This document shows, one piece after another, positions 1,849 through 46,316 of a stretch of 64,000 bases of DNA. Every line of letters begins with the position of its first letter. The stretch's first letter is position 1. The position numbers and the translations under genes were made by a program. Below the pieces are notes generated by a model. It was not told where the DNA came from. It saw only the letters and a list, made by a program, of their open reading frames with translations, and did no database searches. This DNA is from a virus (Duplodnaviria > Caudoviricetes). The DNA lies in IMG/VR virus record IMGVR_UViG_3300035208_002115; one strand, given 5' to 3'.

Positions 1849-2016
1849 ATGCCAAATAAGAATAAAATAATAATAACATTTAATCCAGTAGATTCTTCTA
1901 TATATGATTACATGGATAGCTGGAGAAATTATATAAATGATGAAAATAAAAAACGGCTTGAAAAATTAAGAGCTGAAAGAAAAGCTAAAATAAAAGAAAT
2001 TTTTAAAAATATATAA
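1849..2016 (+). CDS. 55-aa protein with C-terminal RxxKI tag (not in ORF track)
   Basis: Manual translation MPNKNKIII...ERKAKIKEIFKNI*. Confidence 0.7.
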   Translation: MPNKNKIIITFNPVDSSIYDYMDSWRNYINDENKKRLEKLRAERKAKIKEIFKNI

Positions 2017-2037
2017 ACCTAAAAGGTTTATGTATTT

Positions 2038-2193
2038 GTGGAAGAAGAATATTTAAAAACATATAATAAAAGAACCAGTAAAATATTTTCTAATTTAAAA
2101 GAATATTATCGTTCAGATGAAAAATCCTTCAAAATAATTATTTTATTAGAACGATATTTAAAGTTAAAAAGTATTTTCAAAAATTTTGATTAA
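2038..2193 (+). CDS. 51-aa protein with C-terminal RxxKL tag (not in ORF track)
   Basis: GTG start; MEEEYLKTY...ERYLKLKSIFKNFD*. Confidence 0.6.
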   Translation: MEEEYLKTYNKRTSKIFSNLKEYYRSDEKSFKIIILLERYLKLKSIFKNFD

Positions 2194-2198
2194 TTTTT

Positions 2199-2363
2199 AT
2201 GCCAGCATTAATAAGACTTTCAGATTTACAATCTGTCCAACCATTATCAAAACCGAGTGGACATTTACATTATATAGATTTTTTTTATGAAACTATATCA
2301 GAAAAAAGGAAGAAGAAATTAAACGAAATATTTCCAGAATTTAAAAATGAAAACAAAAAGTAA
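2199..2363 (+). CDS. 54-aa protein: major-capsid-like fragment plus RxxKL tag (not in ORF track)
   Basis: MPALIRLSDLQSVQPLSKPSGHLHYIDFFYETISEKRKKKLNEIFPEFKNENKK*; SVQPLSKPSG resembles gp23 VQPMxxPTG. Confidence 0.65.
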   Translation: MPALIRLSDLQSVQPLSKPSGHLHYIDFFYETISEKRKKKLNEIFPEFKNENKK

Positions 2364-2556
2364 ATCTAAATTACAACAAATAAATAATTCAATTAATACA
2401 ACAGTGTCAATACCAACTGAACATTTTAATGTTACAGTTAGAGCAATTTATCCTTATGATTATCCAGATTTTAATTATTTTAAAAGAAAAGAAAAACGTG
2501 AACAACGATTAAAAAAATTAAGTGGATTATTCCCAGATTTTAAAGAAAATGTTTAG
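2347..2556 (+). CDS. Small protein with RxxKL tag
   Basis: Ends REQRLKKLSGLFPDFKENV. Confidence 0.7.
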   Translation: MKTKSKSKLQQINNSINTTVSIPTEHFNVTVRAIYPYDYPDFNYFKRKEKREQRLKKLSGLFPDFKENV

Positions 2557-2836
2557 TCACGAATTATATAATTCAGTTATATCACAGATTGGGGACACTC
2601 CGATTGACGGAGGTGTATATTTACCACTTGATACTTTTTCAGATGTTGATTTTAATAGTATAATTTTTCCAGTGGCGATGAAAATTGCTGCTCAAACAAT
2701 AGGTCTGAATTTAATATCAGTTCAGCCTATGGAACATGGGGTTGATTATGAAAAAATAAAACGAGAAAGAGTACGTGAACAACGAAAGAAAAAAATAGAA
2801 GAAATATTTCCTGAAATGAAAAAACATGAAAAGTAA
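2522..2836 (+). CDS. Major-capsid-like fragment plus RxxKI tag
   Basis: IFPVAMKIAAQTIGLNLISVQPM resembles the gp23 segment preceding VQPM; ends RKKKIEEIFPEMKK; start may be the Met at 2549. Confidence 0.65.
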   Translation: MDYSQILKKMFSHELYNSVISQIGDTPIDGGVYLPLDTFSDVDFNSIIFPVAMKIAAQTIGLNLISVQPMEHGVDYEKIKRERVREQRKKKIEEIFPEMKKHEK

Positions 2837-3014
2837 TTTCACTCTTAATATAATACAAAAAGCTATCCGAGATGGATTTACAACTTTAACAATTGATTGT
2901 GAATTAAATTATGACCAACTATGGTTAAAAGTAAAACGGGAAATTATTCAGGAACATAGAAAACAAAAAATAGAAGAACTATTTCCAGATATAAAAAATA
3001 ATAATAAACTATGA
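2826..3014 (+). CDS. Small protein with RxxKI tag
   Basis: Ends HRKQKIEELFPDIK. Confidence 0.7.
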   Translation: MKSNFTLNIIQKAIRDGFTTLTIDCELNYDQLWLKVKREIIQEHRKQKIEELFPDIKNNNKL

Positions 3015-3289
3015 AAACATTGAGAAAATTAATTATTAAATTCTTCGCTGGTTACTATCAAATCGGTAAAGGAACTATTCCAAGAGCATCAGCCATCATT
3101 TTTCCGTCATTAATGATACCTATAATACTCGAAATAATTTTCGCACCAACCCCAGTGTTGTGGCATTTTATTCCATTTTTCATATTTGTGTTGATAAGTT
3201 TTGGGTATCTACAATTCTATCCAGCTAAACCAGAAGAATTGGATGCAGCTCAGAAAAAACAATATGATGATTTAACAAAAAACAAATAA
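3011..3289 (+). CDS. Small membrane protein (2 TM)
   Basis: Two hydrophobic stretches. Confidence 0.7.
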   Translation: MKTLRKLIIKFFAGYYQIGKGTIPRASAIIFPSLMIPIILEIIFAPTPVLWHFIPFFIFVLISFGYLQFYPAKPEELDAAQKKQYDDLTKNK

Positions 3290-3294
3290 TTGAT

Positions 3295-3564
3295 ATGGAA
3301 GCATCGAAAGTTAATTTTATTCAATTGGATACAGAAAAATTGGTATATCTATTAGATTATTTAGGATTTGAAAATTTTCTCAGAGTAGCAGGTAGTCATA
3401 AGAAAATTATGAATGATGACTGTGTTACCGAAATTAAATATTCGGATGGTTATGATATATTAATTGTCAAACCTAATACTATTTCGTTTATTAATGACCC
3501 ATATCCAGAGAAGGTGTTTTTCACGGCTGAAAATTATGCAAAACTTTGGAAAGTTTTTAATTAA
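3295..3564 (+). CDS. Hypothetical protein
   Basis: ORF track; tight operon spacing. Confidence 0.65.
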   Translation: MEASKVNFIQLDTEKLVYLLDYLGFENFLRVAGSHKKIMNDDCVTEIKYSDGYDILIVKPNTISFINDPYPEKVFFTAENYAKLWKVFN

Positions 3565-3645
3565 TTTTTTAATTATATCAGCAATGTACATTTTTTAATT
3601 AATTTTGGACATACTTATAATTTATGTACAGTTTTAAAATAAATA

Positions 3646-3873
3646 GTGATGTTATCAAATATGACTGGTGAAAAAAAACTGGTAGATAAAATAGCCAATA
3701 TATTATCTATTAGACCATCTGAATATGAACGGGAGTTTATTGACGTTGTAATATACGGTGGAAAAAGTGACCCAAGTGAAAAGGCAAGTGTAATATGTTG
3801 TTTTTTCGAAAAGGATAATGAAGAAAATAGAAAAGCTATATATGATATATTAACCTCACACTGGGAAAAATAA
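3646..3873 (+). CDS. Hypothetical protein
   Basis: ORF track; start may be 3661. Confidence 0.6.
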   Translation: MMLSNMTGEKKLVDKIANILSIRPSEYEREFIDVVIYGGKSDPSEKASVICCFFEKDNEENRKAIYDILTSHWEK

Positions 3874-3877
3874 TATT

Positions 3878-4156
3878 ATGAAAAAATTTATCGATTTTAC
3901 AGTAAATTTAGAAGACAAAAGCAAAGACCAAGGACGATTTTTCTGGAAGAAAAGGTGGATTTCGTTTTGCAGTAGACATAAGAAGTATCAAAGATATTGT
4001 GATATTTGTAATTCTGGTAGATGGGAAAATGTGTGGGTTATGTGGTTTAGTGGAAAAGTTTATGATTACTTTCCTAAATTCTGGATATGGTGGGTTAATT
4101 TTCCAAAATATATAATAAATTTCAAAAAAATAAAAGATTTACATGAGAATTTTTAA
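3878..4156 (+). CDS. Trp-rich hypothetical protein with C/H metal-binding motif
   Basis: CSRH...CDIC. Confidence 0.65.
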   Translation: MKKFIDFTVNLEDKSKDQGRFFWKKRWISFCSRHKKYQRYCDICNSGRWENVWVMWFSGKVYDYFPKFWIWWVNFPKYIINFKKIKDLHENF

Positions 4157-4460
4157 ATGCAGACCATTCGGGGATTTTGATGTTGATTTAGACGACCCAA
4201 AGACTTACGAATATCTACCAGATACAACTAAAGAATTAAGACAAATCATGCTTAGTGAAATAGGATATAGTCATTGTTATTTAAACTACTGGCATAAAGA
4301 TGATGGTTTTGGTAATCGTAAAACTAACGGAAACCAAATAAGAAGAATTGAATCTTTAATTAAAAATTTCACTGAAAATGAACGTGATAATTACAATAAT
4401 GTGATGTGGTATAAAGAACAGATATTCTTATTCCAAGATGAAATAGAAAATATGTGTTAA
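4143..4460 (+). CDS. Hypothetical protein
   Basis: ORF track; overlapping operon. Confidence 0.65.
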   Translation: MRIFKCRPFGDFDVDLDDPKTYEYLPDTTKELRQIMLSEIGYSHCYLNYWHKDDGFGNRKTNGNQIRRIESLIKNFTENERDNYNNVMWYKEQIFLFQDEIENMC

Positions 4461-4675
4461 TCATGAGAGGTAATATGAGTTTACAAACTAAGATTGAAAA
4501 TAATAAAAACCAATTAATTAAAGAAAACATCACTGAAACTTATATCGATGATAGATATTTTTGTGGAACTTGTGGTAACATAGGCAAATGTCATCCAATA
4601 ACAGGTATGTGTTTCATATGTGGTGATGACAACTGGAAAACCGTTGAAGGTAAAGAAAATGAAATCGGATATTAA
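4454..4675 (+). CDS. Small zinc-ribbon protein
   Basis: CGTC...CHP...CFIC. Confidence 0.6.
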   Translation: MLIMRGNMSLQTKIENNKNQLIKENITETYIDDRYFCGTCGNIGKCHPITGMCFICGDDNWKTVEGKENEIGY

Positions 4676-4687
4676 AACATTATATTC

Positions 4688-4867
4688 ATGAAAGACATTT
4701 ATAAATTAGCCAAGGAAGCCCATATCGAAGAAGAATTCAAAGCATATTCTATTAGATGGGTATGTCAAAAAGGTCACACCAATCACCAAACTATATTATG
4801 GAAAGATTCCACCCAACATGATGTGTGTCTCAAATGTGGTGAGCATTACGAATATAAAGTTGAATAA
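4688..4867 (+). CDS. 59-aa zinc-ribbon protein (not in ORF track)
   Basis: Manual translation MKDIYKLAKE...WVCQKGH...VCLKCGEHYEYKVE*. Confidence 0.65.
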   Translation: MKDIYKLAKEAHIEEEFKAYSIRWVCQKGHTNHQTILWKDSTQHDVCLKCGEHYEYKVE

Positions 4868-4870
4868 TAA

Positions 4871-5015
4871 CGTTCAATAAAATAACGATGTTCAAGTTCG
4901 CTGAACATTCAAATATATTGAACAAAAAACCACAACAAGTAGCGAATTTGTTGTGGTGAGCCGAAACGATAACAGTCCTTTTATTACGGCAATATCATAA
5001 ATATAACAATTTCTT
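4871..5015 (-). ncRNA. Putative structured small RNA / multi-hairpin element
   Basis: Stems 4872-4879/4916-4923, 4888-4894/4902-4908, 4929-4938/4948-4957, 4960-4963/4987-4990; AATATATA on minus strand at 5020-5027. Confidence 0.4.
4924..4957 (-). terminator. Intrinsic terminator-like hairpin
   Basis: 10-bp stem accacaacaa/ttgttgtggt followed by a U6 tract on the minus strand. Confidence 0.6.
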
Positions 5016-5038
5016 GTATTATATATTAATTTTTTTAT

Positions 5039-5046
5039 TATTTTTG
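5039..5046 (+). promoter_or_regulatory. Bacteroidota-type -7 element (TATTTTTG)
   Basis: TAnnTTTG upstream of ATG 5070. Confidence 0.4.
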
Positions 5047-5069
5047 ATGCACATTTAAAATAAAAAAAA

Positions 5070-5531
5070 ATGAAATTCAATTTAATTAATAAAATAACAT
5101 TGGGAATTCTTATAGCATCGATAGTATTTGTGTTTATATTTTTCCCAATACAATATAAAAATTTAGTACATAAAAACTATCTGAAAATAGAAAAACATAC
5201 AGATACGATATCTATCAATCAGAATACATATGTGTGTTATAAATTAGATGATGGTAAAACCTATCTATTAAACATTGAAGATAAAGAAACTAACAGGATT
5301 CAAATACTTAAAGATGTTTTGTTTGAAACTTATCTTCAAAAAGATGAGATAGAAATAAAAAACATAACCATCAAAAGTGCTATACAAAGAGCCGAAACTA
5401 ACGAAAAGCCCGACCAATTAAATAATGATGATGAATATATTAAATTAAAATATTTAAATATATACAACGAAGCCCAAGCAGATACATTAAGAGCTTTTAT
5501 TGGGAGTCTAAAAAAAGAATTACTAAAATGA
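5070..5531 (+). CDS. Membrane-anchored hypothetical protein
   Basis: N-terminal TM segment. Confidence 0.7.
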   Translation: MKFNLINKITLGILIASIVFVFIFFPIQYKNLVHKNYLKIEKHTDTISINQNTYVCYKLDDGKTYLLNIEDKETNRIQILKDVLFETYLQKDEIEIKNITIKSAIQRAETNEKPDQLNNDDEYIKLKYLNIYNEAQADTLRAFIGSLKKELLK

Positions 5532-5725
5532 CAAAACGTTGTATAGTTTGTGGTAAGGAACTTGAAGTGTTATATCCAGATGATGGTAACAATAATCGCT
5601 TAATAAAAGATGGGTTAACTGAAATAATTAGTGCATCCTATGGTAGTAAATTTGATGGGGTGATGCTTGAAATAACTATCTGTGATGATTGTATACAAGA
5701 AAAAATAGATAACAAAATCATTTAG
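5528..5725 (+). CDS. Small zinc-finger protein
   Basis: CIVC...CDDC. Confidence 0.7.
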   Translation: MTKRCIVCGKELEVLYPDDGNNNRLIKDGLTEIISASYGSKFDGVMLEITICDDCIQEKIDNKII

Positions 5726-6218
5726 GAATTTTAAAGAAAAAATCATCGTTCTTATCACGCATTTCTTTTTTAAATATATGTTCAATCTTAGCCTTTCGAG
5801 AATACGTTTTAGATTCATGTTCGGTTAGTACTCTGAATGGTGAAGATGTTGTTTCGTGATAAATTCCGTCTATATAAATATCAATTTTTCTATCATCTAT
5901 TTTATTTAAAAAATAGAAAGGTTTAGCTTCATAAAGCGTACCAGCTTTTATTTTATCACCAACATCGACTAAAGCCAATACAGTTTTATATTTAAGTAAG
6001 TCATCACTATCAAAACGATTGAACCGATATCGATTTGGATATGTTTTATATTCTTTATTTTCTAAAGGTGAAAACCATTGCTGCTTAAAATACCCCGATT
6101 TACCAATAAATGATATTTTTTTATTTAAATTATCAATATATGCAACCGTATGTGTAGAGAAATATTCTATTTCTTTATATTTACGAACTAAACACTTGAC
6201 TTTAAATATAAATTCCAT
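5718..6218 (-). CDS. Hypothetical protein with RxxKI tag
   Basis: ...PFRVLTEHESKTYSRKAKIEHIFKK. Confidence 0.7.
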   Translation of the reverse strand: MEFIFKVKCLVRKYKEIEYFSTHTVAYIDNLNKKISFIGKSGYFKQQWFSPLENKEYKTYPNRYRFNRFDSDDLLKYKTVLALVDVGDKIKAGTLYEAKPFYFLNKIDDRKIDIYIDGIYHETTSSPFRVLTEHESKTYSRKAKIEHIFKKEMRDKNDDFFFKIPK

Positions 6219-6226
6219 AATTTTAA

Positions 6227-7027
6227 TTAAAAAGAATCTTCTAAACTCATTATAAGTTTCTGCATATTAGCTCTGTAAAACCCAGCACAATTTATACATC
6301 CACATTCAACTATTTTATATTCACCGTTCACCAGACACAAATCCATAACAAAAGCATCATTTAATTGGAAAATATTCACCATTTTCTTACAGAAATCATA
6401 AGCTGGTTGGTCAATATTTTCATTTAAACAATATCTTCCACCTAATCTATATTGACTGGCTGTAACGACTTCACCTTTCACAATCCAGAACCGTATTTCT
6501 TGCTGTATGTTTTTAATAGAAGAAATTTGTATTTCAGTATCAACATTTAATAAATTTGATATTTGAATAGTAGTACCATCGTCAAAAGTGACAGTTGAAT
6601 TATCATTATTCAAAACACTTTCTTTAAAGTTTCTCCACTGTTCCATATCAAAGATTTTACCCGTAAACACTTTAGTATCCTTGGTTGGCCTTGCAAAAAA
6701 TATTTCTTTACTGAAAAACTCATCACCAAACCGATATACTTTAGAATCCCAGTTTAATAGCTTTTCTCTATAATATTCACGGTATACTAAATAATCATGA
6801 TTGTCGTTCATCTGCGACCCAGGTCTCCATCCGAGACCCTTTGATACCCTCGCCAGTTTCATAGAGCCAAACGGAAATATATCTTTTCTTTTAGTTTTAA
6901 TCTTTATATCATCAATAAATGGTAAAACTTTAACAACTTCATAGGGTAATTTCAACCTGTCTAAAGCTATTATTAAATTATTATAATTTTCTTCTTTAAA
7001 CGTATTCTCTTGAACAATATAATACAT
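6227..7027 (-). CDS. ATP-grasp domain protein (DUF4343/R2K-like)
   Basis: FFARPTKDTKVFTG, EIRFWIVKGEVVTASQY, FVMDL...KIVECGCINCAGFY. Confidence 0.8.
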   Translation of the reverse strand: MYYIVQENTFKEENYNNLIIALDRLKLPYEVVKVLPFIDDIKIKTKRKDIFPFGSMKLARVSKGLGWRPGSQMNDNHDYLVYREYYREKLLNWDSKVYRFGDEFFSKEIFFARPTKDTKVFTGKIFDMEQWRNFKESVLNNDNSTVTFDDGTTIQISNLLNVDTEIQISSIKNIQQEIRFWIVKGEVVTASQYRLGGRYCLNENIDQPAYDFCKKMVNIFQLNDAFVMDLCLVNGEYKIVECGCINCAGFYRANMQKLIMSLEDSF

Positions 7028-7032
7028 AATAT

Positions 7033-8409: not shown

Positions 8410-8724
8410 TTATTTTAGAATATCTTCTATCTTTGCTTTTCTTGTTGCATTTTTATCCAAAATAAAACGTTCGGCTATGAAAATTTTATCTGGGAATTCT
8501 TTTAAACTTATGATTTGAGGTGTATCAAGATGTTTATTATTGGATAATATTCTTATTTCAAATGCTTTTAATATTTCATCATCACAAGAACAATCTCGTA
8601 ATACTGTATAATTATCACACCATGACAAACACTTATAATCATCATATATTACATAGAAACGATTTTCAGCATAACCAGCCATAGTAGAAAATGTTATTAT
8701 ATCACCAACTTTAAATTCTTGCAT
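8410..8724 (-). CDS. SH3/KOW-like small protein with RxxKI tag
   Basis: FKVGDII...AERFIL...RKAKIEDILK. Confidence 0.7.
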   Translation of the reverse strand: MQEFKVGDIITFSTMAGYAENRFYVIYDDYKCLSWCDNYTVLRDCSCDDEILKAFEIRILSNNKHLDTPQIISLKEFPDKIFIAERFILDKNATRKAKIEDILK

Positions 8725-9038
8725 TATAATATATCTAAACTATTAATTTTTTTCTTTCTTGTTTCAGTCACATTTAATACAAATCTATCAGCTTTGAATA
8801 TATGTTTTGTAAAGAATGCGTTAATATCTACAACAAGTAATTCTTCTAAAGTGATAATTTCAAAAATAGCTACATCATGTATTTGTTTATGAATTGACAA
8901 TACTGTATAATTTTCACCCAAGGTTAATAAAACATAATTATCAGGTATTGGAATTTTATATTGATGTGTTACAGGATTATAAAAACCATGTTCTTCAGCA
9001 CAATCTATACATGTTACAACATCACCAATCTGAAACAT
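8724..9038 (-). CDS. SH3/KOW-like small protein with RxxKI tag
   Basis: Likely start MFQIGDVVTCID (9038); ADRFVL..RKKKINSLDIL. Confidence 0.7.
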   Translation of the reverse strand: MFQIGDVVTCIDCAEEHGFYNPVTHQYKIPIPDNYVLLTLGENYTVLSIHKQIHDVAIFEIITLEELLVVDINAFFTKHIFKADRFVLNVTETRKKKINSLDIL

Positions 9039-9223: not shown

Positions 9224-9445
9224 TTAATGCTTTATAATTTCATTTGCGTAAAATTCACAAACATATCTTTGATATTTTGGACGAACATAAATATAAAAAC
9301 CGTCAATACTAATTATTCTTCCGAGTATTGGACTTGGATTATTTTTTAAATCGAATGGAATATTTCCTATAATTTCTATTATATCACCAACTCTAAATCG
9401 AGGTCGGTATGGAATTATATTGACTAAATAAGAATCAATCTCCAT
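9224..9445 (-). CDS. SH3/KOW-like small protein
   Basis: FRVGDIIEI...GRIISIDG. Confidence 0.65.
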   Translation of the reverse strand: MEIDSYLVNIIPYRPRFRVGDIIEIIGNIPFDLKNNPSPILGRIISIDGFYIYVRPKYQRYVCEFYANEIIKH

Positions 9446-9653
9446 ACAAAATTTCTTTTATTTTAAGCATTCTCTGATGTTGTAATTGTAATTTTTTAGA
9501 ATTGTTAATCAAAAAGTCTGTTTCTTTTTTCATTATATCATATAAACAATAATGACAGACGTATTCTCCACGTCTTTTGACTAAATTATATTCTGTCCCA
9601 CAATTACAGCAAGTTTTCATATCATCGTTCTGTTTTACTCCCACATCTTTCAC
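9435..9653 (-). CDS. Zinc-finger protein with RxxKI tag
   Basis: CCNC...CHYC; RMLKIKEILYGD. Confidence 0.7.
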   Translation of the reverse strand: MKDVGVKQNDDMKTCCNCGTEYNLVKRRGEYVCHYCLYDIMKKETDFLINNSKKLQLQHQRMLKIKEILYGD

Positions 9654-10018: not shown

Positions 10019-10261
10019 TTATTCCAAAATACCAAGACTCTTTATCTTTTTTTTCCTAAGATTTGGTATAAGTTGTTTATGACAATCTGGACAAAAAACA
10101 CCTGATTCTATTTCAACATATTGCATGAGTTCAAAATGATTTAGTGGTGTGTCACAGTATTTACATCTCCAATTTCTATCCAATGACGATAATGTCATAT
10201 TCTTACCGTAATCTGGTAATTCATTAACTCGCCAACTATGGTCACCAAGTCTACTCATCAA
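10019..10261 (-). CDS. Zinc-ribbon protein with RxxKI tag
   Basis: CKYC...CPDC; RKKKIKSLGILE. Confidence 0.7.
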   Translation of the reverse strand: MMSRLGDHSWRVNELPDYGKNMTLSSLDRNWRCKYCDTPLNHFELMQYVEIESGVFCPDCHKQLIPNLRKKKIKSLGILE

Positions 10262-10466
10262 AAAGTTCTTTAAGTTTTAAATATCTTTCGTGTAATTTTG
10301 TGAGTGTTGCACTAAAAATTGTCCAACCATTATTATAATAAATAAACATGGTTTGTGTATGCAATTCATAATACACATCATATTCTTGTGGAAAATCTGG
10401 TTTATGATGATGCCATTTAAAGCCACCATTATCAAGAAGTGAATCAATATGATTTTTATTACCCAT
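10251..10466 (-). CDS. Small protein with RxxKL tag
   Basis: ERYLKLKELFDE. Confidence 0.7.
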   Translation of the reverse strand: MGNKNHIDSLLDNGGFKWHHHKPDFPQEYDVYYELHTQTMFIYYNNGWTIFSATLTKLHERYLKLKELFDE

Positions 10467-10775: not shown

Positions 10776-11042
10776 TTACAAATCATCAAAAATGTTTAAT
10801 AATTTTTGTTTGCGAAATTTGACTAATGAAATAAAATGTTTTTTACTATGAAAATTACTGGTTTCTTCTAACATAACTATATTTTCTAACGCATTATATG
10901 TTACATCGGGATTATCTTCTTCACTAAAATCAACTCTAATTGTGTATATTTCATGTAATTTAATATATTTATTAGGTTTATCTTTGTCCCGTTCTTCTTC
11001 TTCTTTTATACAAACTACTTTATCACCAACTTTATATTTCAT
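10776..11042 (-). CDS. SH3/KOW-like paralog with RxxKL tag
   Basis: YKVGDKVVCI...KHFISL..FRKQKLLNIFDDL. Confidence 0.75.
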   Translation of the reverse strand: MKYKVGDKVVCIKEEEERDKDKPNKYIKLHEIYTIRVDFSEEDNPDVTYNALENIVMLEETSNFHSKKHFISLVKFRKQKLLNIFDDL

Positions 11043-11269
11043 TTTAGAATTTCATTTATTTTCAATTTCCTAAATTCTTCCATAGTAATAAATCGTTCTT
11101 TAGAACAAATATCATTTACACCATGAAGAAACAATCCAGTAATCTCAATATCACGAAAATTAAACAATATATTTGTATCTACTGTGTAAATTTTATACAA
11201 TTCCAACGACATTTCACCATAAAATTTTGGTTCAATACAAACTATTTTATCCCCCTCATTAAAAATCAT
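11039..11269 (-). CDS. SH3/KOW-like paralog with RxxKI tag
   Basis: FNEGDKIVCI...ERFITMEEFRKLKINEILK. Confidence 0.75.
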   Translation of the reverse strand: MIFNEGDKIVCIEPKFYGEMSLELYKIYTVDTNILFNFRDIEITGLFLHGVNDICSKERFITMEEFRKLKINEILK

Positions 11270-11534
11270 TTAATATATTCTTTATTTTCTGCATTCTGAA
11301 TTCATTAATTGAAATAAAATGTTCTTTACACCATAAACTACTTTGATATCTTATCGAATTATTATGTGTATATTTCGCTTTTATGGTTAAACATCCAGCT
11401 ATAACACCTTCAACTATATAAATCTTATTTAATTCCAATTCTATTTCTGGTATAGAATCAGATAATTTACAAGCATCAACAGAAACTACTTTATCACCTT
11501 TTTTAAAAATCATATAAACAATCTTTTCCACCAA
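11259..11534 (-). CDS. SH3/KOW-like paralog with RxxKI tag
   Basis: FKKGDKVVSV...EHFISINEFRMQKIKNILNDF; start probably 11513. Confidence 0.75.
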   Translation of the reverse strand: MVEKIVYMIFKKGDKVVSVDACKLSDSIPEIELELNKIYIVEGVIAGCLTIKAKYTHNNSIRYQSSLWCKEHFISINEFRMQKIKNILNDF

Positions 11535-11736: not shown

Positions 11737-12864
11737 TTACTTTTTAAAATCTTCTTTATCAACACTCACATGCCACACTTTAAAATACTTTTCATAAATA
11801 TCGAATATATCATCATATTTAATATTATCAATATAATTTTCAACATTCCAGTTTTCAGGCATATAACAATGTTCTACATTCTTATATCTTTCTATTTTTT
11901 CCCTTTTAAACTTAGTCATCAGAGAATCTTTAACAACATCAAAACGTTCTGTTGTTAAATATTTTTTTGGATTGTTTAATATCTCATCTAATGTTTCCGT
12001 TAATTCTTTAACATTATTATTAGAGGTTAATGTATGAATATACATGAACCCACAAGAATCCGTCATTTTTTCTATATCACTCTGAACAAAATAAACCAAT
12101 CCACGTTTCTCTCGTAATTCAGAATATAATGGAGATTGTAGTCCAAACCCAAGCATTTTTAAAATGAATGTTACTTGGTAAAAATCATCCAATAAAACAT
12201 TTGAAAAATAAATAATAGATGTTTTTTCTTTAAATGTGTTAGATTTCTGACGAATAAAACTTTTATTATTCAATATTAAATCATAATAAGTATAATACTT
12301 ATCAGCATCTTCAGCAAATTTTATATTTTTATTTTCATATTTCTTACTTTTGGAAACATTGATTATTAAACTTGGATACTTAAATTGTATTTCAAAATAA
12401 TTCTTACAATCTTCATACGTAAGTTTCTTTAAATCAGATAAATCACCAATCGGGCCATAATTATCAAAATATTTTCTGGTTAAATTATAAAAATGGGCAA
12501 CTGGTTGTTCATTGAAGGTATCTCGATATTCTTCAATAACTATTTTCTTTTCATTCTCATATTCTTCTTTAGTAATATTAAACACTGATAAACGGTCAAT
12601 TATTTTATCTCTATATTTATCAAGTTTTTCTTCGAGACCTTGGAATTCAAATGTTATAATATCATTAGTAGTAAATGCATTCCATTCGATATCATCCCTA
12701 CTAAAATCGTCAAAAAACTCATCAACACCTTTACAAACTAAATGTTCCATTAGATGACTTATACCCCGTATACCTTGTTTCTCATTTAAGGTTGAGCCAC
12801 GATGTACTATATAAAAACCTGATAAATCCGTTTCATTTGGCAAATTAATAATTTGATTTTTCAT
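11737..12864 (-). CDS. M16 family zinc peptidase
   Basis: GSTLNE..GISHLMEHL (HxxEH), NAFT, EKKIVIEE, SPLYSELREKRGLVY. Confidence 0.9.
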   Translation of the reverse strand: MKNQIINLPNETDLSGFYIVHRGSTLNEKQGIRGISHLMEHLVCKGVDEFFDDFSRDDIEWNAFTTNDIITFEFQGLEEKLDKYRDKIIDRLSVFNITKEEYENEKKIVIEEYRDTFNEQPVAHFYNLTRKYFDNYGPIGDLSDLKKLTYEDCKNYFEIQFKYPSLIINVSKSKKYENKNIKFAEDADKYYTYYDLILNNKSFIRQKSNTFKEKTSIIYFSNVLLDDFYQVTFILKMLGFGLQSPLYSELREKRGLVYFVQSDIEKMTDSCGFMYIHTLTSNNNVKELTETLDEILNNPKKYLTTERFDVVKDSLMTKFKREKIERYKNVEHCYMPENWNVENYIDNIKYDDIFDIYEKYFKVWHVSVDKEDFKK

Positions 12865-13139: not shown

Positions 13140-13730
13140 TTATTTTAATATATCTCCGAAAATTTCTATTATTTTTTCTTTTCTGAGAATTCCTTTCATA
13201 TTCACGAAATCATTTAATGTTAAATAATGTAATATTAAATTTTTATTATTTAATATATTATTATATATTCTCTTAATTTCAATGAATTTTTTATCTTCCT
13301 TTGTTTCTAAAAAAACACATTTAACATTATTATCATATAATGGTTTAATATCATCTGGGAATTTATATTTAGAAGAAAAATTATCGAATATAAATATTGA
13401 TATCCCTAAATTTTTATATCCATATAATATTTCATTATATTTATCTGTTATATAAATGGTATTACCATTATTCCTGATAACATTTTTTCTATAAGTTACC
13501 CAGCCATACCAATCAATATATCTTTTACATAAAATTTCATCACTCTGTCTTCCATCAGGTGTGAGATATACGCCATTGGTTTTATTATCACTACAAAATT
13601 TAAGTATATAATTTATACCACAGGTAGTCATACCAACTTGTCTTGGTGTGAAGAACCAATGATTCCCATTTGTTACAACGTTTATAAAATATTGGTAAAA
13701 ATCTGTATATGATATGTTTATATCGTCCAT
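13140..13730 (-). CDS. Degenerate terminase-ATPase-like P-loop protein with RxxKI tag
   Basis: TPRQVGMTT (cf. terminase RQxGKT, Lys replaced by Met), FIFDNF (Walker B DE replaced by DN); ends RKEKIIEIFGD. Confidence 0.55.
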   Translation of the reverse strand: MDDINISYTDFYQYFINVVTNGNHWFFTPRQVGMTTCGINYILKFCSDNKTNGVYLTPDGRQSDEILCKRYIDWYGWVTYRKNVIRNNGNTIYITDKYNEILYGYKNLGISIFIFDNFSSKYKFPDDIKPLYDNNVKCVFLETKEDKKFIEIKRIYNNILNNKNLILHYLTLNDFVNMKGILRKEKIIEIFGDILK

Positions 13731-14844: not shown

Positions 14845-15285
14845 TCATTCAATATTTTTTTCATTGAATAATTTTTCCAATTTAAGAAGTCTTTCACCTT
14901 GAATACCGATGTCAGATATCATCTCGTCAAACGCTTGTTTTTTTAATTTTTTATACACATCCTCAGAACTATAATCAAAATGAGACCTAACTACGGCCTC
15001 TAATGCAACAGATAATACTTCTGATTTTACTATTTTAATTTCTTCACCCAACTCATTATACCAAAATATACCATTTTCTTTAATAACTAATTTCACATTA
15101 TCTTTTATACTGAAAATTATTTGATTTTTTTCACATAAAATAGGTGCGCCAATATTTATTTGGTCGTCTACATATGACTTAGTGACGGGTGATGAAAATA
15201 AAGCGTTTGATGCTAATAATCCTGAAATTCCACCCCAGTCTTCCACACATTCATTATACCAATTTTCAAATGAATTTTCACTCAT
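14845..15285 (-). CDS. Hypothetical protein with RxxKL tag
   Basis: ERLLKLEKLFNE. Confidence 0.7.
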   Translation of the reverse strand: MSENSFENWYNECVEDWGGISGLLASNALFSSPVTKSYVDDQINIGAPILCEKNQIIFSIKDNVKLVIKENGIFWYNELGEEIKIVKSEVLSVALEAVVRSHFDYSSEDVYKKLKKQAFDEMISDIGIQGERLLKLEKLFNEKNIE

Positions 15286-19502: not shown

Positions 19503-20516
19503 TTAATCACCAAAACCCAACAATCGTAATTTAATATATCGATTACCTTTTCTGACTAACTCATCACCATCACAATCCAAAAAATAATAAGTGTCAGATT
19601 TTAACTGGAACAACAATTTTTCCAAGTCCTCATCATTCTTTAGTGCAACGGCAGTCTTTCCACATTTATAACATCTTTTGAATTCTTTGATATTATTTTG
19701 TTTTAAAAGGTCTTTAATAAAAAAATCATCTTTAATTTCTTTATAATCCCAATAATCATCCTCACCTTTATTTTTTAACATGATATATTCTTCATTCATA
19801 TAAACGATGATGTAATTATATTCTTTGGTCTCCAGATAATCTTTGAATAATTTTCTGGCAGATTCTCCGAATTTATATGTAATACCTTTCAATAACATAG
19901 ATTGTTTATAGTATTCATTAACATTAAAATCCAGTTTTATTGGATTCTTTTTATCCTTATTGATGTATTTCATAACAAACATTTCCTTAGTATCTTCCTC
20001 ATTAACATGAATATCAGTATATCCAATATATTCACTTCGGTGTTCAATCTCAGGATTTTCATCTTTATATTTTTTATATGTATCCCAATTATCATCAAAA
20101 TATGGAAACATAATCAATAAAGAAGATTTTACTTTACCCATATCGGCAAAATATTTCATTTTAATGGGTTTGTCACCTTTAAATATTTTATATTGAATAA
20201 TATCAGGGTGTGTCATTATTTCACCGTATTCTTTAGTGCAACATCTTAAACTTGTAATGCTTGAACTGAATTTACTACCATTATAAACTGTTCTTATCTT
20301 TTGAAATTTATCATCAAATATATCAGTATTATTATTAAATTTCAAAACAACAGTACCGTTGTCCTTTTTATCTACAACTGTTAAAATAACATCTTTTTCC
20401 AAATATTCACCCCATTTAATATTTAAAGCAAATTTAGTTTCATAATAACTAACACTTTTGTCAACAAGGGTTATCAATTGTTGTCCGACTTGTAGTTCTT
20501 TTAATGAAAGTTTCAT
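19503..20516 (-). CDS. Hypothetical protein with RxxKL tag
   Basis: Likely start MKLSLKELQVG at 20516 (the longer track ORF overlaps the neighbour); ends RYIKLRLLGFGD. Confidence 0.7.
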   Translation of the reverse strand: MKLSLKELQVGQQLITLVDKSVSYYETKFALNIKWGEYLEKDVILTVVDKKDNGTVVLKFNNNTDIFDDKFQKIRTVYNGSKFSSSITSLRCCTKEYGEIMTHPDIIQYKIFKGDKPIKMKYFADMGKVKSSLLIMFPYFDDNWDTYKKYKDENPEIEHRSEYIGYTDIHVNEEDTKEMFVMKYINKDKKNPIKLDFNVNEYYKQSMLLKGITYKFGESARKLFKDYLETKEYNYIIVYMNEEYIMLKNKGEDDYWDYKEIKDDFFIKDLLKQNNIKEFKRCYKCGKTAVALKNDEDLEKLLFQLKSDTYYFLDCDGDELVRKGNRYIKLRLLGFGD

Positions 20517-32353: not shown

Positions 32354-32533
32354 TTATTCGTTATTTTGTGCGAAGTTAAACAATTCTATCAATTTCATTT
32401 CCCTAACCACATCAATAGTTACTAAATTATTGTCGATATCTTCCATCAACCTTCTATCACTTTCTAATTTAAATTCTTCCGTTTCACCCACTAATCTATA
32501 ATATTGTACTAAGTCGGTTTTACCATTTACCAT
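32354..32533 (-). CDS. 59-aa protein with RxxKL tag (not in ORF track)
   Basis: MVNGKTDLVQYY...VVREMKLIELFNFAQNNE*. Confidence 0.65.
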   Translation of the reverse strand: MVNGKTDLVQYYRLVGETEEFKLESDRRLMEDIDNNLVTIDVVREMKLIELFNFAQNNE

Positions 32534-41028: not shown

Positions 41029-41040
41029 ATTTTATTTATC

Positions 41041-41334: not shown

Positions 41335-41339
41335 ATTAT

Positions 41340-41870
41340 ATGAATAAAAAATTAACTGTTGTAAACCTATTCTGTGGGCCGGGTGCTGGGAAAACCACAT
41401 CTCGTTCTCAAATATTTTCTTATCTAAAATGGCACAATATTAATTGTGAAGAAGTTGCCGAGTATGCCAAGAAATTAACTTTTCAAAAAAACTTCAAACA
41501 ATTAAAAAATCAAACATATGTTTTCGCAAAACAACACAATAATATATTCATGGTAGAAGATGATGTTGATGTTGTGATTACTGATTCACCACTATTGTTA
41601 TCTATTATTTATGATAAGAGAAATGATGAACTTTTTAAAAAGTATGTTATACAAACTCACAACGAATATAATAACATAAACATTTTTATAAATAGGGTTA
41701 AGCCATATCATAAAGTGGGGAGAAGTCAAAGTGAGGCTGAATCTAAATTAATCGATGAACAAGTTTTATCATTGTTAAATGAACTTAATGAACCATATCA
41801 AATAGTCAATGGTACATACGAAGATATGTTGGAATACTCGAAAGAGCTTGTATTGGAATTAAAAAAATAA
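41340..41870 (+). CDS. AAA_28/NadR-like P-loop kinase/ATPase
   Basis: GPGAGKTT, EYAK, VITDSPLL. Confidence 0.8.
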   Translation: MNKKLTVVNLFCGPGAGKTTSRSQIFSYLKWHNINCEEVAEYAKKLTFQKNFKQLKNQTYVFAKQHNNIFMVEDDVDVVITDSPLLLSIIYDKRNDELFKKYVIQTHNEYNNINIFINRVKPYHKVGRSQSEAESKLIDEQVLSLLNELNEPYQIVNGTYEDMLEYSKELVLELKK

Positions 41871-41922
41871 AATGTTTTTTTATATATACATTTATTAAAT
41901 ATCTAAAAAATAATTTATATAA

Positions 41923-42279
41923 ATGAAAAACATTTTTAATTTTAAAAAATTCATTTCTAATAAGTTAAATGAATATAAGAATGCAAGTAAAGTTGAAGTT
42001 TTACCCCTGAAAAGTGTAATAGACCAGTTTAAATCACTTGAAAAAGGTATAAATTCGCTTGGTTATAAAGTCGAATTCTCAGAAAAGGATATTAACCGAG
42101 TAGCTGAAAATCATTCAACTTGTAAATTTATTATTGATGGTAAACAAAAGACTTTTTTAATATTCAAAAATGGAACAGTTTATCTTTCTAAAGAAAATGA
42201 AGATGGATATATTGGAATTTTGATATACTACGATGAATTCTTAAAAGGTCTTAAAAAAATACTTAAAGAAGCGTTATAA
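41923..42279 (+). CDS. Putative internal virion protein
   Basis: Leader MKNIFNFKKFISNKLNE. Confidence 0.65.
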   Translation: MKNIFNFKKFISNKLNEYKNASKVEVLPLKSVIDQFKSLEKGINSLGYKVEFSEKDINRVAENHSTCKFIIDGKQKTFLIFKNGTVYLSKENEDGYIGILIYYDEFLKGLKKILKEAL

Positions 42280-42294
42280 AATAAATGGACGGTC

Positions 42295-42783
42295 TTGAAA
42301 AAATACACACTATTAACTCTATTATTATTTTTTGTACACCTAAATGTGGTTGTATCTCAAAGTAATTTAGTGTTTACGGATTCTGTTAAGATAACCAAGA
42401 CTAACACTAATATTCGCTCAAATATAGAACACTGGTATAGTAATGAAAATAATATACACATATCAGTTCTTCGAACTGATGGTAAAAGTTATATAGGGGT
42501 TGCCAGTTTATATTATCCAAATCACTCTAAATACATAGAAGGATATGTCAATTTTAAATTCACTATAACTATAAAAGAAAATTATTTATATATTCGGTAT
42601 TATAATCTTATACACACCTCAGACAATATATCATTTGGTTTATTATTGAAAAATCAACCCAACTTATCTAACAACTGTTATTTACATGCTGATATATGTA
42701 AAGTTTTATGGAATGACCTCATAGAATATTTAACAAATCACTTAATGATAACAACAGCCGATTTGAAATATTATTTTAAGTAA
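42295..42783 (+). CDS. Secreted protein, DUF4468-like
   Basis: Signal peptide; GYVNFKFTITIKENYLYIRYYNLIH. Confidence 0.5.
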   Translation: MKKYTLLTLLLFFVHLNVVVSQSNLVFTDSVKITKTNTNIRSNIEHWYSNENNIHISVLRTDGKSYIGVASLYYPNHSKYIEGYVNFKFTITIKENYLYIRYYNLIHTSDNISFGLLLKNQPNLSNNCYLHADICKVLWNDLIEYLTNHLMITTADLKYYFK

Positions 42784-42838
42784 TTTTTTTTATAATAAAC
42801 AAATCTATATTTTTGTTTTATAATAAAAATAAAGTGAA

Positions 42839-43159
42839 ATGCTTAAAACTAAAAATGACGAATATTATGTGTTGTGTTTCAAAAACGAATATAATGAAAC
42901 TCAATATATTAAATCGTATAATTATAAGAACATTAACAGACCCATTTCAAATCATAAGTTACAATATAAAACTTATGTATATTTGACTAAGAGTTTGGAA
43001 GAAGCAAAAATTTGGAAGAAAAAGAATGGTGCTTTTAGAATGTGTAAAAATGTAATAGCACCAACACTGAATATTCCATTTGAATCTATAAGTATAAGTA
43101 GTGTATCAAAACAAAAGATTCGAAGGGCTAAGATTCTTGAACTTGGATTATTGGATTAA
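42839..43159 (+). CDS. Hypothetical protein with RxxKI tag
   Basis: Ends IRRAKILELGLLD. Confidence 0.7.
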   Translation: MLKTKNDEYYVLCFKNEYNETQYIKSYNYKNINRPISNHKLQYKTYVYLTKSLEEAKIWKKKNGAFRMCKNVIAPTLNIPFESISISSVSKQKIRRAKILELGLLD

Positions 43160-43170
43160 ATATTAGAAAT

Positions 43171-43458
43171 ATGGCAGAGCGTAGAGGAAGTATAAGAACC
43201 GTAAAAGGCATCGAATTAGAAAATAAACACCAGCTTACTTATGAAAAATGGTGGCTTGGAAAACACATAGAAACTAATTTATTTAAAGATTATCCTATTA
43301 GTGAGGACATGATTAACGGAATAGTTGAAAATGTTAAATATGTCGGTAACTCGGTGTCTGGGGTTGTAGAATTAACGTTAGATAATGGTTTTGTTTATTT
43401 AGTTGGTTCACGAACTTCATACAGACCAACAAAGGCCGATGTTAAAATATTAAATTAA
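43171..43458 (+). CDS. Hypothetical protein
   Basis: ORF track. Confidence 0.65.
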   Translation: MAERRGSIRTVKGIELENKHQLTYEKWWLGKHIETNLFKDYPISEDMINGIVENVKYVGNSVSGVVELTLDNGFVYLVGSRTSYRPTKADVKILN

Positions 43459-43476
43459 TTACCTAATTTTTATATA

Positions 43477-43710
43477 ATGGATAACCAGCTATCTTTAAAT
43501 GAAGACGAAATGAGAGCCATAGTCTCGGTGATGAGGGGTATGAGACATTTTTCTAAACATGATACTGTTGAATCTCTATTGGATTATATTGTTAAAGAAG
43601 AAATAGCAAACAGAACCAATGGGAAAATCAAATGGGAAACCCCCATGTTAAATTTGTTTAAATCTATCGAGGAAAAATTCAAAAAGCGTCTTTCAGAACA
43701 TGGTTTATAA
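43477..43710 (+). CDS. Hypothetical protein
   Basis: ORF track. Confidence 0.65.
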   Translation: MDNQLSLNEDEMRAIVSVMRGMRHFSKHDTVESLLDYIVKEEIANRTNGKIKWETPMLNLFKSIEEKFKKRLSEHGL

Positions 43711-44062
43711 TTTAATAATAGATGACTCCAGAACCATACAAATGGTTTATAACGTAACTGGTAATTCAATTTACATTAATTTGAAATGGATTATAGTCAA
43801 ATCTTTTGATGAATTTGTAAAAACTATAATAGATAAAGGAATACCAGAAAATATCAGTTTCGACCACGATTTAGGTGATTTTATTTTAGAAGATGGTGAA
43901 TTGAAAGAACGTACTGGGTATGACTGTATTAAATGGTTAGTTGACTATTGTCAAGATAATAATCTGAAATTACCAAATTGTTTAGTTCACACTTCTAATA
44001 CGGTTGGGTCGGAAAACATTAAAAGGTATATTGGAAATAGTAAAAAACATCTGGGTATATAA
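43700..44062 (+). CDS. Cyclic-phosphate-processing receiver-like domain (cREC_REC)
   Basis: LIIDDSR, ISFDHDLG, TGYDCIKWL, HTSNTVG. Confidence 0.8.
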   Translation: MVYNLIIDDSRTIQMVYNVTGNSIYINLKWIIVKSFDEFVKTIIDKGIPENISFDHDLGDFILEDGELKERTGYDCIKWLVDYCQDNNLKLPNCLVHTSNTVGSENIKRYIGNSKKHLGI

Positions 44063-44443
44063 ATGGACGAAATTGATAAACTAAAAGAATTACGGCTCAT
44101 ACAGTATTTAGATTCATTAACCATTACATTTATTGAAGAAAGTAACGAATCTTACTTTGATAAAAAAACAATATCTACTATCAAAGATACCATATTTCAA
44201 TTGATATCAACTATTAATACATCACCTTATTTATTTTTTAAACAGTGGTCACCTTTTGGATTTGTAATTCATTATACTGTTTATTATAAATCAAAAAAGA
44301 TATTTGATATTACTGAAAAATACTTACCTAAAAATTACAATAGGGATAAAATGAATCTATTGATAATGGGGGAAATAAATTCGTCAAAACATTATCATTT
44401 TATTAATGAAAAACCTCAAAAACTGTCTGATATAGACTACTAA
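44063..44443 (+). CDS. Hypothetical protein
   Basis: ORF track. Confidence 0.6.
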   Translation: MDEIDKLKELRLIQYLDSLTITFIEESNESYFDKKTISTIKDTIFQLISTINTSPYLFFKQWSPFGFVIHYTVYYKSKKIFDITEKYLPKNYNRDKMNLLIMGEINSSKHYHFINEKPQKLSDIDY

Positions 44444-44483
44444 AATATTTCTTCTGTAATTTTTTTCTTTATTATTTTGTGAT

Positions 44484-44491
44484 TATATTTG
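44484..44491 (+). promoter_or_regulatory. Bacteroidota-type -7 element (TATATTTG)
   Basis: TAnnTTTG heading the 44511-47927 small-gene operon. Confidence 0.55.
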
Positions 44492-44510
44492 TTGTGTAAA
44501 ATTATACAAT

Positions 44511-44834
44511 ATGTTTGAACTTGATTTAACACAACCGATAGAAATATCTCACTCAGCCTCGACTGACCCATTCGATAAACACGAAGGTGAAAGAAGAACT
44601 GAATTGAAAAAATATAAACGGGTTTTACACTATCGTGGGTTTGAATATAAAGAAAATATAAATGTACCAGTTGGTGGTGATGGTCTTTGGGAAATACCTG
44701 AATTACCATGTTTTGGTATTGGTGCTAACACTAAAGGTAAATTAGTTGTTTCTCAGACACAGGCAAAAGAAGCTATTGATAATTATTACAACAACTGTGC
44801 GTTGAATGGAAATAACCCAAAAAACAAAAACTAA
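44511..44834 (+). CDS. Hypothetical protein
   Basis: ORF track. Confidence 0.65.
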   Translation: MFELDLTQPIEISHSASTDPFDKHEGERRTELKKYKRVLHYRGFEYKENINVPVGGDGLWEIPELPCFGIGANTKGKLVVSQTQAKEAIDNYYNNCALNGNNPKNKN

Positions 44835-44844
44835 AACAAAAATT

Positions 44845-45291
44845 ATGAATACAGATATCGATAATATTTTTTCACATTCTATTTTTATTTCAAAACTTAA
44901 AGATTTGGGGTTTGATATTGAAGTGAAAAGTAATAAAGATGGAGATTATACTTATGACCTTTTTGTGAATGGTATTAGAATTTCAACTACTGATTATCGA
45001 ATATTTGGTTATTACTGCGGTGGTGCTTATGCTTCATGTGCAAGAACAGATAAAGAAGAATATTCAATAGAAGACATTGAAATTGCGATAACGAAATGTT
45101 CCGAAGTATTAATGAGTGAAATTATTTCGATAAGTAAAGTTCCATCTTACTTTGATTGTAGAGATTTTCTAAATTTAAAATTTGGAAAATCAAAAGTGGA
45201 GAAAGATGCTATTAAAAGAGTCTTATCCCTTTTAAAAGAAAATTATCAAGATTTAATTAAATCGGTAGTTGGTTTTCAACGTTACCGATAA
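44845..45291 (+). CDS. Hypothetical protein
   Basis: Likely start MNTDID at 44845. Confidence 0.65.
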   Translation: MNTDIDNIFSHSIFISKLKDLGFDIEVKSNKDGDYTYDLFVNGIRISTTDYRIFGYYCGGAYASCARTDKEEYSIEDIEIAITKCSEVLMSEIISISKVPSYFDCRDFLNLKFGKSKVEKDAIKRVLSLLKENYQDLIKSVVGFQRYR

Positions 45292-45318
45292 TATGAATAT
45301 AATTTTAAATAAAAACAT

Positions 45319-45522
45319 ATGATAGAATATTTGTACACAGAAGGTAAAATTGGTGATAGGAATACACCAATACCTGTAAGATTAAATGGTCAAAGAGTTG
45401 GAACAATTAAACCAGTAGAAGGTGGGTGGCAGTATTTTCCTCTTAACCACAAACAAGGTGGTGAAATTTTTGATACTATTGATAAAGTTCAAAAATCTCT
45501 CGAATTTTGTGAAGAAGAATAA
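45319..45522 (+). CDS. Hypothetical protein
   Basis: ORF track. Confidence 0.65.
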   Translation: MIEYLYTEGKIGDRNTPIPVRLNGQRVGTIKPVEGGWQYFPLNHKQGGEIFDTIDKVQKSLEFCEEE

Positions 45523-45537
45523 AGAATAAATTATAAC

Positions 45538-45792
45538 ATGAAAACAATAAAATTCACAGTAGCATATTATCATGGCATCGGAGAAAACCCAATGGTTATC
45601 CTTTTGGATAGGGAAGTTGGTTATATGAAAAGACAATATAACACCATCGAAGAACTAAAGGCCGACATCACCGAAGATGCTATTATTTATTTTGTTGCCG
45701 ATAAATATGACAATCGATTTAGTGATTTGGATAACTGGCATGGTGGTAATTTTGATTTTGATAAATTATCCGAAGTAGTATTTAAAAACTAA
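45538..45792 (+). CDS. Hypothetical protein
   Basis: ORF track. Confidence 0.65.
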   Translation: MKTIKFTVAYYHGIGENPMVILLDREVGYMKRQYNTIEELKADITEDAIIYFVADKYDNRFSDLDNWHGGNFDFDKLSEVVFKN

Positions 45793-45796
45793 TAAT

Positions 45797-45982
45797 ATGT
45801 CAAAAATTAAAAAAGTTGATGAAGAATTCATCCCAATGTGGAAAAAAGAACTTGAAAAAGTTAAACGTTGTCCACAACGTCAGGATTCTATGACCGACCA
45901 GTTAAAAGATTTGTGGCAGATTGCTAATAAATTTGGTTTTTATGATGCAGCCGACCATATCAGAACCATTTGTAATTTTTAA
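45797..45982 (+). CDS. Hypothetical protein
   Basis: ORF track; DQLKDL..IANKFGFYDAAD. Confidence 0.65.
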   Translation: MSKIKKVDEEFIPMWKKELEKVKRCPQRQDSMTDQLKDLWQIANKFGFYDAADHIRTICNF

Positions 45983-45986
45983 TTAT

Positions 45987-46316
45987 ATGAAAGATATATT
46001 TAACAAAGAAATGGAAATTGGACATATAGTTGCAGTTAGATATGTCTGGAATAGTTATGTTGGTGTGCTTAGAACAAATGGCTTATCTATGCGAGAATTA
46101 GCACAAAAACACTGGGCAATGGCAGATTGTCACCCAATTGAATCAAAGAATACACATCAGATTTTAGGACATATTGATGTAAATCATTCAGATTTTAATA
46201 AAGATGTAAATGAGTGGGCATATTCAGAAGATGAAAATGTCAAATGTCCTGTTGATATCCATATTTACAAAACAAAAGAAGAAATCAGAAAACTTAAAAT
46301 AGAATCTCTATGGTAA
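45987..46316 (+). CDS. Hypothetical protein with RxxKI tag
   Basis: Likely start MKDIFNKEMEIG; ends EIRKLKIESLW. Confidence 0.7.
   Translation: MKDIFNKEMEIGHIVAVRYVWNSYVGVLRTNGLSMRELAQKHWAMADCHPIESKNTHQILGHIDVNHSDFNKDVNEWAYSEDENVKCPVDIHIYKTKEEIRKLKIESLW

Follow-up and report, generated by a model that had tools for sequence, protein, structure and literature searches.

A C-terminal peptide on unrelated small proteins of a very large phage behaves like an undescribed address label

A short C-terminal peptide with the core R-x-x-K-[IL]-x-x-[IL], here called the tag, recurs on small and otherwise unrelated proteins of a very large phage. The stretch under study, referred to as the window, consists of 64,000 nucleotides of IMG/VR virus record IMGVR_UViG_3300035208_002115 (Duplodnaviria; Caudoviricetes) and corresponds to positions 221370-285369 of the 675,678-bp record (27% G+C), designated G000; coordinates are those of the window unless preceded by a genome name. 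An original prediction, made from the letters of the window alone, listed 21 open reading frames (ORFs) as carrying the tag, and the named peptide is indeed where it was reported in all 21. A profile applied genome-wide (see below) accepts 20 of them; the other, a 337-residue ORF at 19503..20516 on the minus strand, matches the regular expression only (score -0.7), probably by chance, and probably has no true tag. A 59-residue ORF on the same strand (32354..32533) is borderline, with a score of 9.7.

The tagged ORFs of the plus strand begin with one of 55 residues at 1849..2016, the Arg codon of its tag lying at 1978, and continue with ORFs of 51 (2038..2193), 54 (2199..2363), 69 (2347..2556), 95 (2549..2836) and 62 residues (2826..3014); two more, of 106 and 109 residues, lie at 42839..43159 and 45987..46316. 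The 54-residue product has a weak likeness to a segment of gp23 (E 0.036), and the 95-residue product incorporates a piece of the phage's own major capsid protein, 27-30 residues long (63% identity; profile E 1e-7); the latter ORF is found, again tagged, in the relative G001, whose capsid protein is 94% identical to that of G000. On the minus strand, a 166-residue ORF (5718..6218) has its tag 26 residues from the end. It is followed by two 104-residue ORFs with SH3-like bodies (8410..8724 and 8724..9038), one of about 61 residues with an uncertain start (9435..9620), one of 79 residues with a CxxC pair that looks like a Zn ribbon by sequence (10019..10258), one of 71 residues (10251..10466), and three more SH3-like proteins of 88, 76 and 84 residues (10776..11042, 11039..11269 and 11259..11513). 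Further on lie a 196-residue stand-alone terminase ATPase domain (13140..13730), in which the Walker A Lys has become Met and the Walker B DE has become DN, and an ORF of 146 residues (14845..15285). The SH3-like, capsid-fragment and dead P-loop bodies had been described correctly, and the SH3-like protein at 11039..11269 belongs to a family in which clustering at 50% identity gives more than 110 clusters, almost all with the tag.

How far does the tag extend beyond the window? Among the 1,084 G000 genes predicted with our own gene caller, the strict motif R-x-x-K-[IL]-x-x-[IL]-[FL] occurs 161 times at 8-20 residues from the C-terminus, compared with 1.7 expected from its rate at internal sites (19 in 153,591), and a Lys/Ile-rich composition therefore fails to explain it. 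The genome-wide profile finds the tag on 177 of the 1,084 genes with about 2.6 false positives, that is, on roughly one-sixth (~16%) of the proteome. Its consensus is R (98%), K (61%), x, K (99%), I/L (99%), K/E (69%), E (43%), I/L (96%) and F/L (69%). The carriers are small (median 104 residues), their bodies fall into 169 sequence clusters, and only 1 of the 177 spans a membrane, against 33 of 649 comparison proteins. They are arranged in arrays, with 115 having a tagged neighbor versus 53 at random, and none of the large replication proteins of G000 is tagged. The Arg of the tag lies 8-26 residues from the C-terminus and the last residue varies, and because that distance is so variable no free end is needed. 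Five strong tags (scores 18-30) lie 34-244 residues inside G000 proteins (L016:6446-6958, L030:14422-15489, L022:4940-5215, L022:16016-16246 and L024:16100-16870), which suggests fusions or read-through and, again, a tag that needs no free end. No family matching the tag was found in Pfam, PHROGs or NCBIfam, and feature matches in the ESM Atlas were all below 0.8. The literature covered, which includes huge-phage papers such as PMC12607003 and excludes subscription journals, contained no mention of the motif.

The tag is conserved as protein, not as DNA. All six Arg codons (AGA, CGA, AGG, CGT, CGG and CGC) are in use for its Arg, Ile and Leu interchange, and the codons are used at close to average genome frequencies. 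R and K cannot stand in for one another, since the swapped variants are not enriched among untagged G000 genes (K-x-x-K, 7 versus 3.8; R-x-x-R, 0 versus 0.6). In 53 pairs of G000-G001 orthologs, the tag R is kept in 94% and the K in 89%, compared with 58% for the body. The tag is retained in 46 of the 53 pairs, and because several full-length G001 orthologs lack it, that of an ABC ATPase for example, it appears to be gained or lost as a unit. An AlphaFold2 model based on a 113-sequence family places the tag of the 11039..11269 protein in a helix (residues 63-75, pLDDT 93) that follows the SH3-like barrel; a Foldseek search with this model returned weak chromo/SH3 matches only. Hardly any Pro or Gly occurs in the tag (Pro, 0.3% versus 2.6%; Gly, 0.6% versus 5.1%). 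With helical spacing, R0, K3 and positions 4, 7 and 8 share one face, and R0 and K3 thus point the same way as the hydrophobic residues. The original prediction had called the helix amphipathic, which in the membrane-binding sense it is not: its hydrophobic moment is 0.23, compared with 0.33 for other C-termini, and this low value together with the shared face fits binding to a pocket better than anchoring in a membrane. We conclude that the tag is under selection at the protein level, is portable and is helical.

A separate class of G000 proteins carries an N-terminal leader resembling the capsid targeting sequence (CTS) of phage T4, a portable N-terminal peptide that is late, cleaved and found on unrelated small proteins. 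That the tag keeps apart from this leader was part of the original prediction, and it holds without exception for a narrow pattern (0 of 53 overlapping), but as avoidance and not as a total separation for a loose one (8 of 135; odds ratio 0.29, p=1.7e-4). The promoters of the two classes also differ. The Bacteroidota -7 promoter element TANNTTTG is found at 39 of 102 operon heads of tagged genes versus 12 of 97 for leader-bearing genes (p=4e-5), while the late-type ATATATA is found at 34 of 102 versus 78 of 97 (p=2e-11), and the skew is repeated in G001 and in the relative LR756502. The tag is therefore the mark of a soluble accessory class that is skewed to host-type promoters. Among the bodies of the 177 tagged proteins, only 1-4 have detectable homologs in the parts read of LR756501 and LR756502, against 38-45 of 630 untagged small proteins; this scarcity and the host-type promoter skew together suggest that the tagged proteins are fast-evolving, probably early and host-facing. 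A leader-bearing protein in the window, an Acb1-like 2H phosphoesterase at 899-1432 on the plus strand (PF23474, E 8e-7), is possibly a packaged anti-CBASS enzyme, because it carries the CTS-like leader.

Most tagged bodies belong to no known family. Those that can be named in G000 include an Acb3 anti-CBASS homolog (G000:636116, E 2.6e-25), ankyrin repeats, a receiver domain, an ABC ATPase, and fragments of gp23 and of PolB motifs. Enrichment of decoy fragments among the tagged genes was considered and rejected: fragments of core proteins (E<1e-4) are no commoner there, with 2 of 243 tagged small proteins versus 11 of 1068 untagged ones, and since they are equally frequent in the untagged genes, a decoy joined to a tag is a subset and not the rule. 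Untagged mini-genes that copy segments of core proteins are common in these phages (G000:549832, 415016 and 504077; also in G001 and LR756501), the sources being a conserved 595-residue protein upstream of the head genes (probably the portal), the prohead protease/scaffold and the capsid protein. In LR756502, a tagged 71-residue protein at 320919 resembles the UVR/M-domain helix of that phage's own ClpC-like ATPase (E 5e-5).

Comparison with relatives indicates that each genome has its own form of the tag. The gp23-type capsid protein of G000 is nearest to that of LR756501 (735 kb, 62% identity), with LR756502, LR745206 and LR756504 at 50-52%. Al-Shayeb et al. assigned their four largest genomes to the Mahaphage clade and predicted Bacteroidetes as hosts (PMC7162821), and we infer that G000 is likely a Mahaphage with promoters of the Bacteroidota type. 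Sequencing runs that contain the G000 DNA come from landfill and groundwater, and no RNA run is among those listed. In G000 and G001 the spelling is R-K-x-K-[IL]-[KE]-[EK]-[IL]-[FL]. In LR756502 it is R-[DNE]-x-K-[IL]-[ND]-x-[IL]-[LGI], with 82 strict matches (1.7 expected) and 125 when position 3 is relaxed, among 903 genes; in LR756501 it is E-x-K-N-x-K-R-T-x-L-[IM]-D-x-M-L-N, on 29 of 985 genes (0.3 expected). LR745206 and LR756504 are tag-bearing as well. The same bodies change spelling with the genome: the SH3-like family of G000 wears the local form in LR756502, and two G000 tagged bodies have LR756501 homologs with the LR756501 form. No enrichment was seen in the nearly whole LR756500 or in samples of Lak-A2, PTm1, MA9V-2 and PAU; G003, G007 and G008 are fragments that lack the regions where LR756501 clusters its tags, and so are uninformative on tag presence. 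The spelling does not agree with the capsid tree. That it is uniform within a genome and shifts between genomes argues for a single reader in each phage, or in each host, that co-evolves with the tag. A supposed prototype of the tag, R-x-M-K-L-K-G-L near the capsid gene, was judged a chance likeness, being the natural end of an unrelated 260-290-residue protein absent from G000. This phage clade seems to contain several tag systems side by side. A second motif, D-P-Y-G-E-E-x-W, C-terminal and internal and mostly on leader-bearing proteins, is found in LR756501 (L043-L062) and G008 and is absent from G000; lineage-specific C-terminal tags are E-E-[DN]-I-E-W on 16 genes of G007 (L238-L242), N-A-D-D-F-G-F in LR756500 (L212-L231) and K-K-L-G-L-L on three leader proteins of G002.

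Which known systems does the tag resemble? Among the closest are the C-terminal clamp-binding tails of T4 gp43, gp55 and gp33 (PMC2988020), where an interchangeable C-terminal peptide brings unrelated phage proteins to one phage-encoded hub. Those tails, however, are acidic and hydrophobic, form the extreme C-terminus and are found on three core proteins, whereas the tag is a basic helix with an invariant R and no Q on some 175 small accessory proteins, and the PIP box Q-x-x-[ILM]-x-x-[FY][FY] shows no C-terminal enrichment in six relatives. The GpsB docking motif SRxxR(R/K) is likewise a short helix with a critical Arg that joins unrelated proteins to one adaptor, with a spelling that varies by species (bioRxiv 10.1101/427823); it differs in being cellular, N-terminal and membrane-adjacent, with few clients, another spacing and no I/L stripe. 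The T4 CTS (see above) shares with the tag the logic of a portable address carried by unrelated small proteins in a T4-like phage, but it is N-terminal, late and cleaved, and the tag is C-terminal, depleted for ATATATA and apart from the CTS-like leader class of G000. The ssrA- and Tsp-type degrons have fixed last residues and require a free carboxyl end, which the tag does not. By analogy, then, the tag would act as the T4 clamp tails and the GpsB motif do, yet it belongs with neither of them, nor with the CTS or the end-dependent degrons. Poxvirus ANK/F-box (PRANC) adaptors, with which the original prediction had compared it, join a variable body to a constant C-terminal handle, and one tagged protein does have ankyrin repeats; on the other hand, the roughly 170 unrelated tagged bodies include enzymes, and neither a likeness to an F-box nor a ubiquitin ligase was seen. 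Acb3, the ankyrin repeats, the dead terminase ATPase and the capsid fragments would suit such adaptors, whereas the ABC ATPase with intact Walker motifs and a riboflavin kinase (LR756502) would not, so that adaptor logic is only one option.

The best explanation, which we think probable though far from assured, is that a single partner protein reads the tag as a docking handle, the short helix presenting its R0, K3, I/L4, I/L7 and F/L8 face to a pocket on that partner. The proposal of a constant docking helix, variable bodies and one shared partner is well supported, if indirectly, by the protein-level selection, the lack of R/K exchange, the helix, the gain and loss on orthologs and the genome-wide respelling. 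The best named candidate for the reader, put forward tentatively, is a phage MoxR-type AAA+ ATPase (G000:187823-189010; AAA/bpMoxR-like, below the bpMoxR cut-off) with its neighbor, a vWA-metallopeptidase (G000:184817-186520; DUF2201_N plus DUF2201), a pair located 32-37 kb before the window in which an AAA+ protein with Walker A and B motifs adjoins a vWA protein with a MIDAS motif. All six complete tag-bearing genomes encode the AAA+, and the host-type promoter element TANNTTTG precedes the vWA gene at -50. A mirror test over 77 genes common to G000, LR756501 and LR756502 compared similarity in tag spelling with the genome backbone. The G000 backbone is nearer to LR756501 by a median of 8 points. 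The AAA+ (z 5.4) and the vWA-peptidase (z 2.8) go the other way, as the tag does, and rank first and second of the 77 for nearness to LR756502; LR756502 and G000 share K3. Among 63 genes, the AAA+ also has the largest share of its change on the branch of LR756501, which has the most altered tag. Such a pair would grip tagged proteins and then unfold, release or cut them. This could serve either a scheduled clearing of early proteins or an action on host proteins held by the tagged bodies, such as a CD-NTase bound by Acb3 or a sensor bound by the dead terminase. Two more AAA ATPases, one of them BCS1-like, are encoded at G000:632267 and G000:164883.

Several points weigh against this reading. 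The reader signal comes from a single three-genome comparison, examined after the lead arose, and the AAA+ tree shows a long LR756501 branch, not a clade of G000 with LR756502; gene transfer or relaxed selection would equally yield such a branch. The pair also occurs in G002, where no tag is visible in the 220 kb read, and a distant AAA+ occurs in LR756500, which has no tag. Group 2.2 jumbo phages have pairs of the kind that G000 encodes, but Iyer et al. 2021 proposed a role in virion assembly for them and named no client motif (PMC7824862); the link to the tag is our own proposal. Base composition (27% versus 31-33% G+C) could account for part of the difference in spelling, and early expression of the tagged genes is probable from promoter motifs only.

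An alternative that we regard as unlikely is that the tag is a degron or docking motif for a machine of the host (ClpC/ClpX, Lon, FtsH, DnaK or a Bacteroidota hub) and that the spelling follows the host, in which case early proteins would have short half-lives or would carry the targets they bind to one of the host's proteases. The solubility of the tagged proteins and their skew to host-type promoters would suit this, as would a spelling that does not fit the capsid tree, and any reader of the Clp type would need to come from the host, given that G000 and G001 lack ClpP and a Clp ATPase. It is difficult, however, to reconcile proteases that are conserved among hosts with a spelling that differs strongly among phages of one clade, and free-end degrons are unlike a tag that lies 8-26 residues inside with an unconstrained last residue. 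Phage-encoded ClpP, Clp ATPase and tubulin were considered as readers and none was found in G000; a conserved 59-residue gene adjoining a tagged array was also set aside, being absent from LR756504 and of no family. Two or three ClpP homologs each occur in LR756502, LR745206, LR756504 and LR756500, with none in G000 or LR756501, and a ClpC-like ATPase occurs in most relatives apart from G000 and G001.

We consider it improbable that the tag has no single reader and that its helices bundle with one another or bind a surface (membrane, condensate or shell) in the manner of microcompartment encapsulation peptides. Unrelated proteins that end in a short helix with a hydrophobic stripe, its net charge +2 in G000, are what such a model would call for, but R and K are not exchangeable, the low hydrophobic moment is unlike that of membrane-targeting helices of the MinD/FtsA type, and the tag of LR756502 is acidic at positions 1 and 5, again more in keeping with a pocket than with a membrane. 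A search for tubulin in G000 found none; it did not extend to shell proteins.

The tagged array of the window encloses an untagged M16B zinc peptidase (11737..12864, minus strand), and it seems quite improbable that this enzyme reads or cuts the tag as the mitochondrial processing peptidase (MPP) does basic helical presequences. Its HxxEH motif is intact, and it is kin to MPP-beta and Bacillus M16B. All six complete tag-bearing genomes have it; five tag-free ones do not, nor do the remaining records in a set of 50,697 from phages. That distribution is the clade boundary, as it would be for any clade marker, and in most other genomes the neighbors of the gene are untagged. Moreover, the enzyme is highly conserved despite the shifts in spelling (only sixth in the mirror test, z 1.6), position +2 after the tag R is not consistently hydrophobic, and the acidic residues that would read Arg-2, by the MPP numbering, seem not to be kept in the alignment. 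A second signal for loading cargo into the capsid or ejecting it from the virion is very improbable: shared tags on unrelated proteins are the logic of the T4 CTS, and a T4-like phage already employs peptide tags for cargo, but the tagged genes avoid late promoters and the CTS-like leader, and two tagged LR756502 proteins have membrane anchors. Least probable of all is a by-product of a DNA or RNA signal (the next gene's translation start or a recombination cassette) or of shared ancestry, which the clustering (115 versus 53) and the greater likeness of neighboring tags (26% versus 19%) might suggest but which is largely refuted by the near-average codon use, by next starts that lie from about 15 to more than 150 nt away (19 tagged genes having no same-strand neighbor at all), and by equal synonymous identity in neighboring and distant tags (0.577 versus 0.579), the last two excluding a translation-start or recent-cassette origin.

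Two other genes of the window may be mentioned. An R2K-clade ATP-grasp ligase (PF14243), a possible peptide ligase, lies within the tagged region at 6227-7027 on the minus strand and has a homolog of 47% in LR756501. A 755-residue protein with a C-terminal receiver-like domain is encoded at 48574-50841 on the plus strand and is one of several response-regulator genes in G000.

Docking peptides shared by a few proteins are already known, whereas here about 16% of the proteome of a virus, nearly all of it the product of orphan genes, has the peptide, which is respelled between relatives; in this the tag behaves like an undescribed address label. A fuller version of the single-reader proposal, which we would call a long shot, is a private megaphage pathway in which the AAA+/vWA-peptidase reads a co-evolving tag on 30-175 early proteins, some of them adaptors that deliver host defense proteins for remodeling or destruction. 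If true, prokaryotic viruses would have a counterpart to the F-box adaptors of other viruses, and anti-host proteins could be listed by their tag from sequence alone. The pairs of spelling and reader would permit clean swaps, and an orthogonal tag-reader pair could serve as a tool. More generally, if one reader exists, unknown genes of the largest phages could be sorted into an early, soluble, host-facing class that includes at least one anti-CBASS homolog, with a direct route to mining the tagged orphan genes, and the tag would hint at a means by which a phage of 600-700 kb keeps hundreds of accessory proteins under common control.

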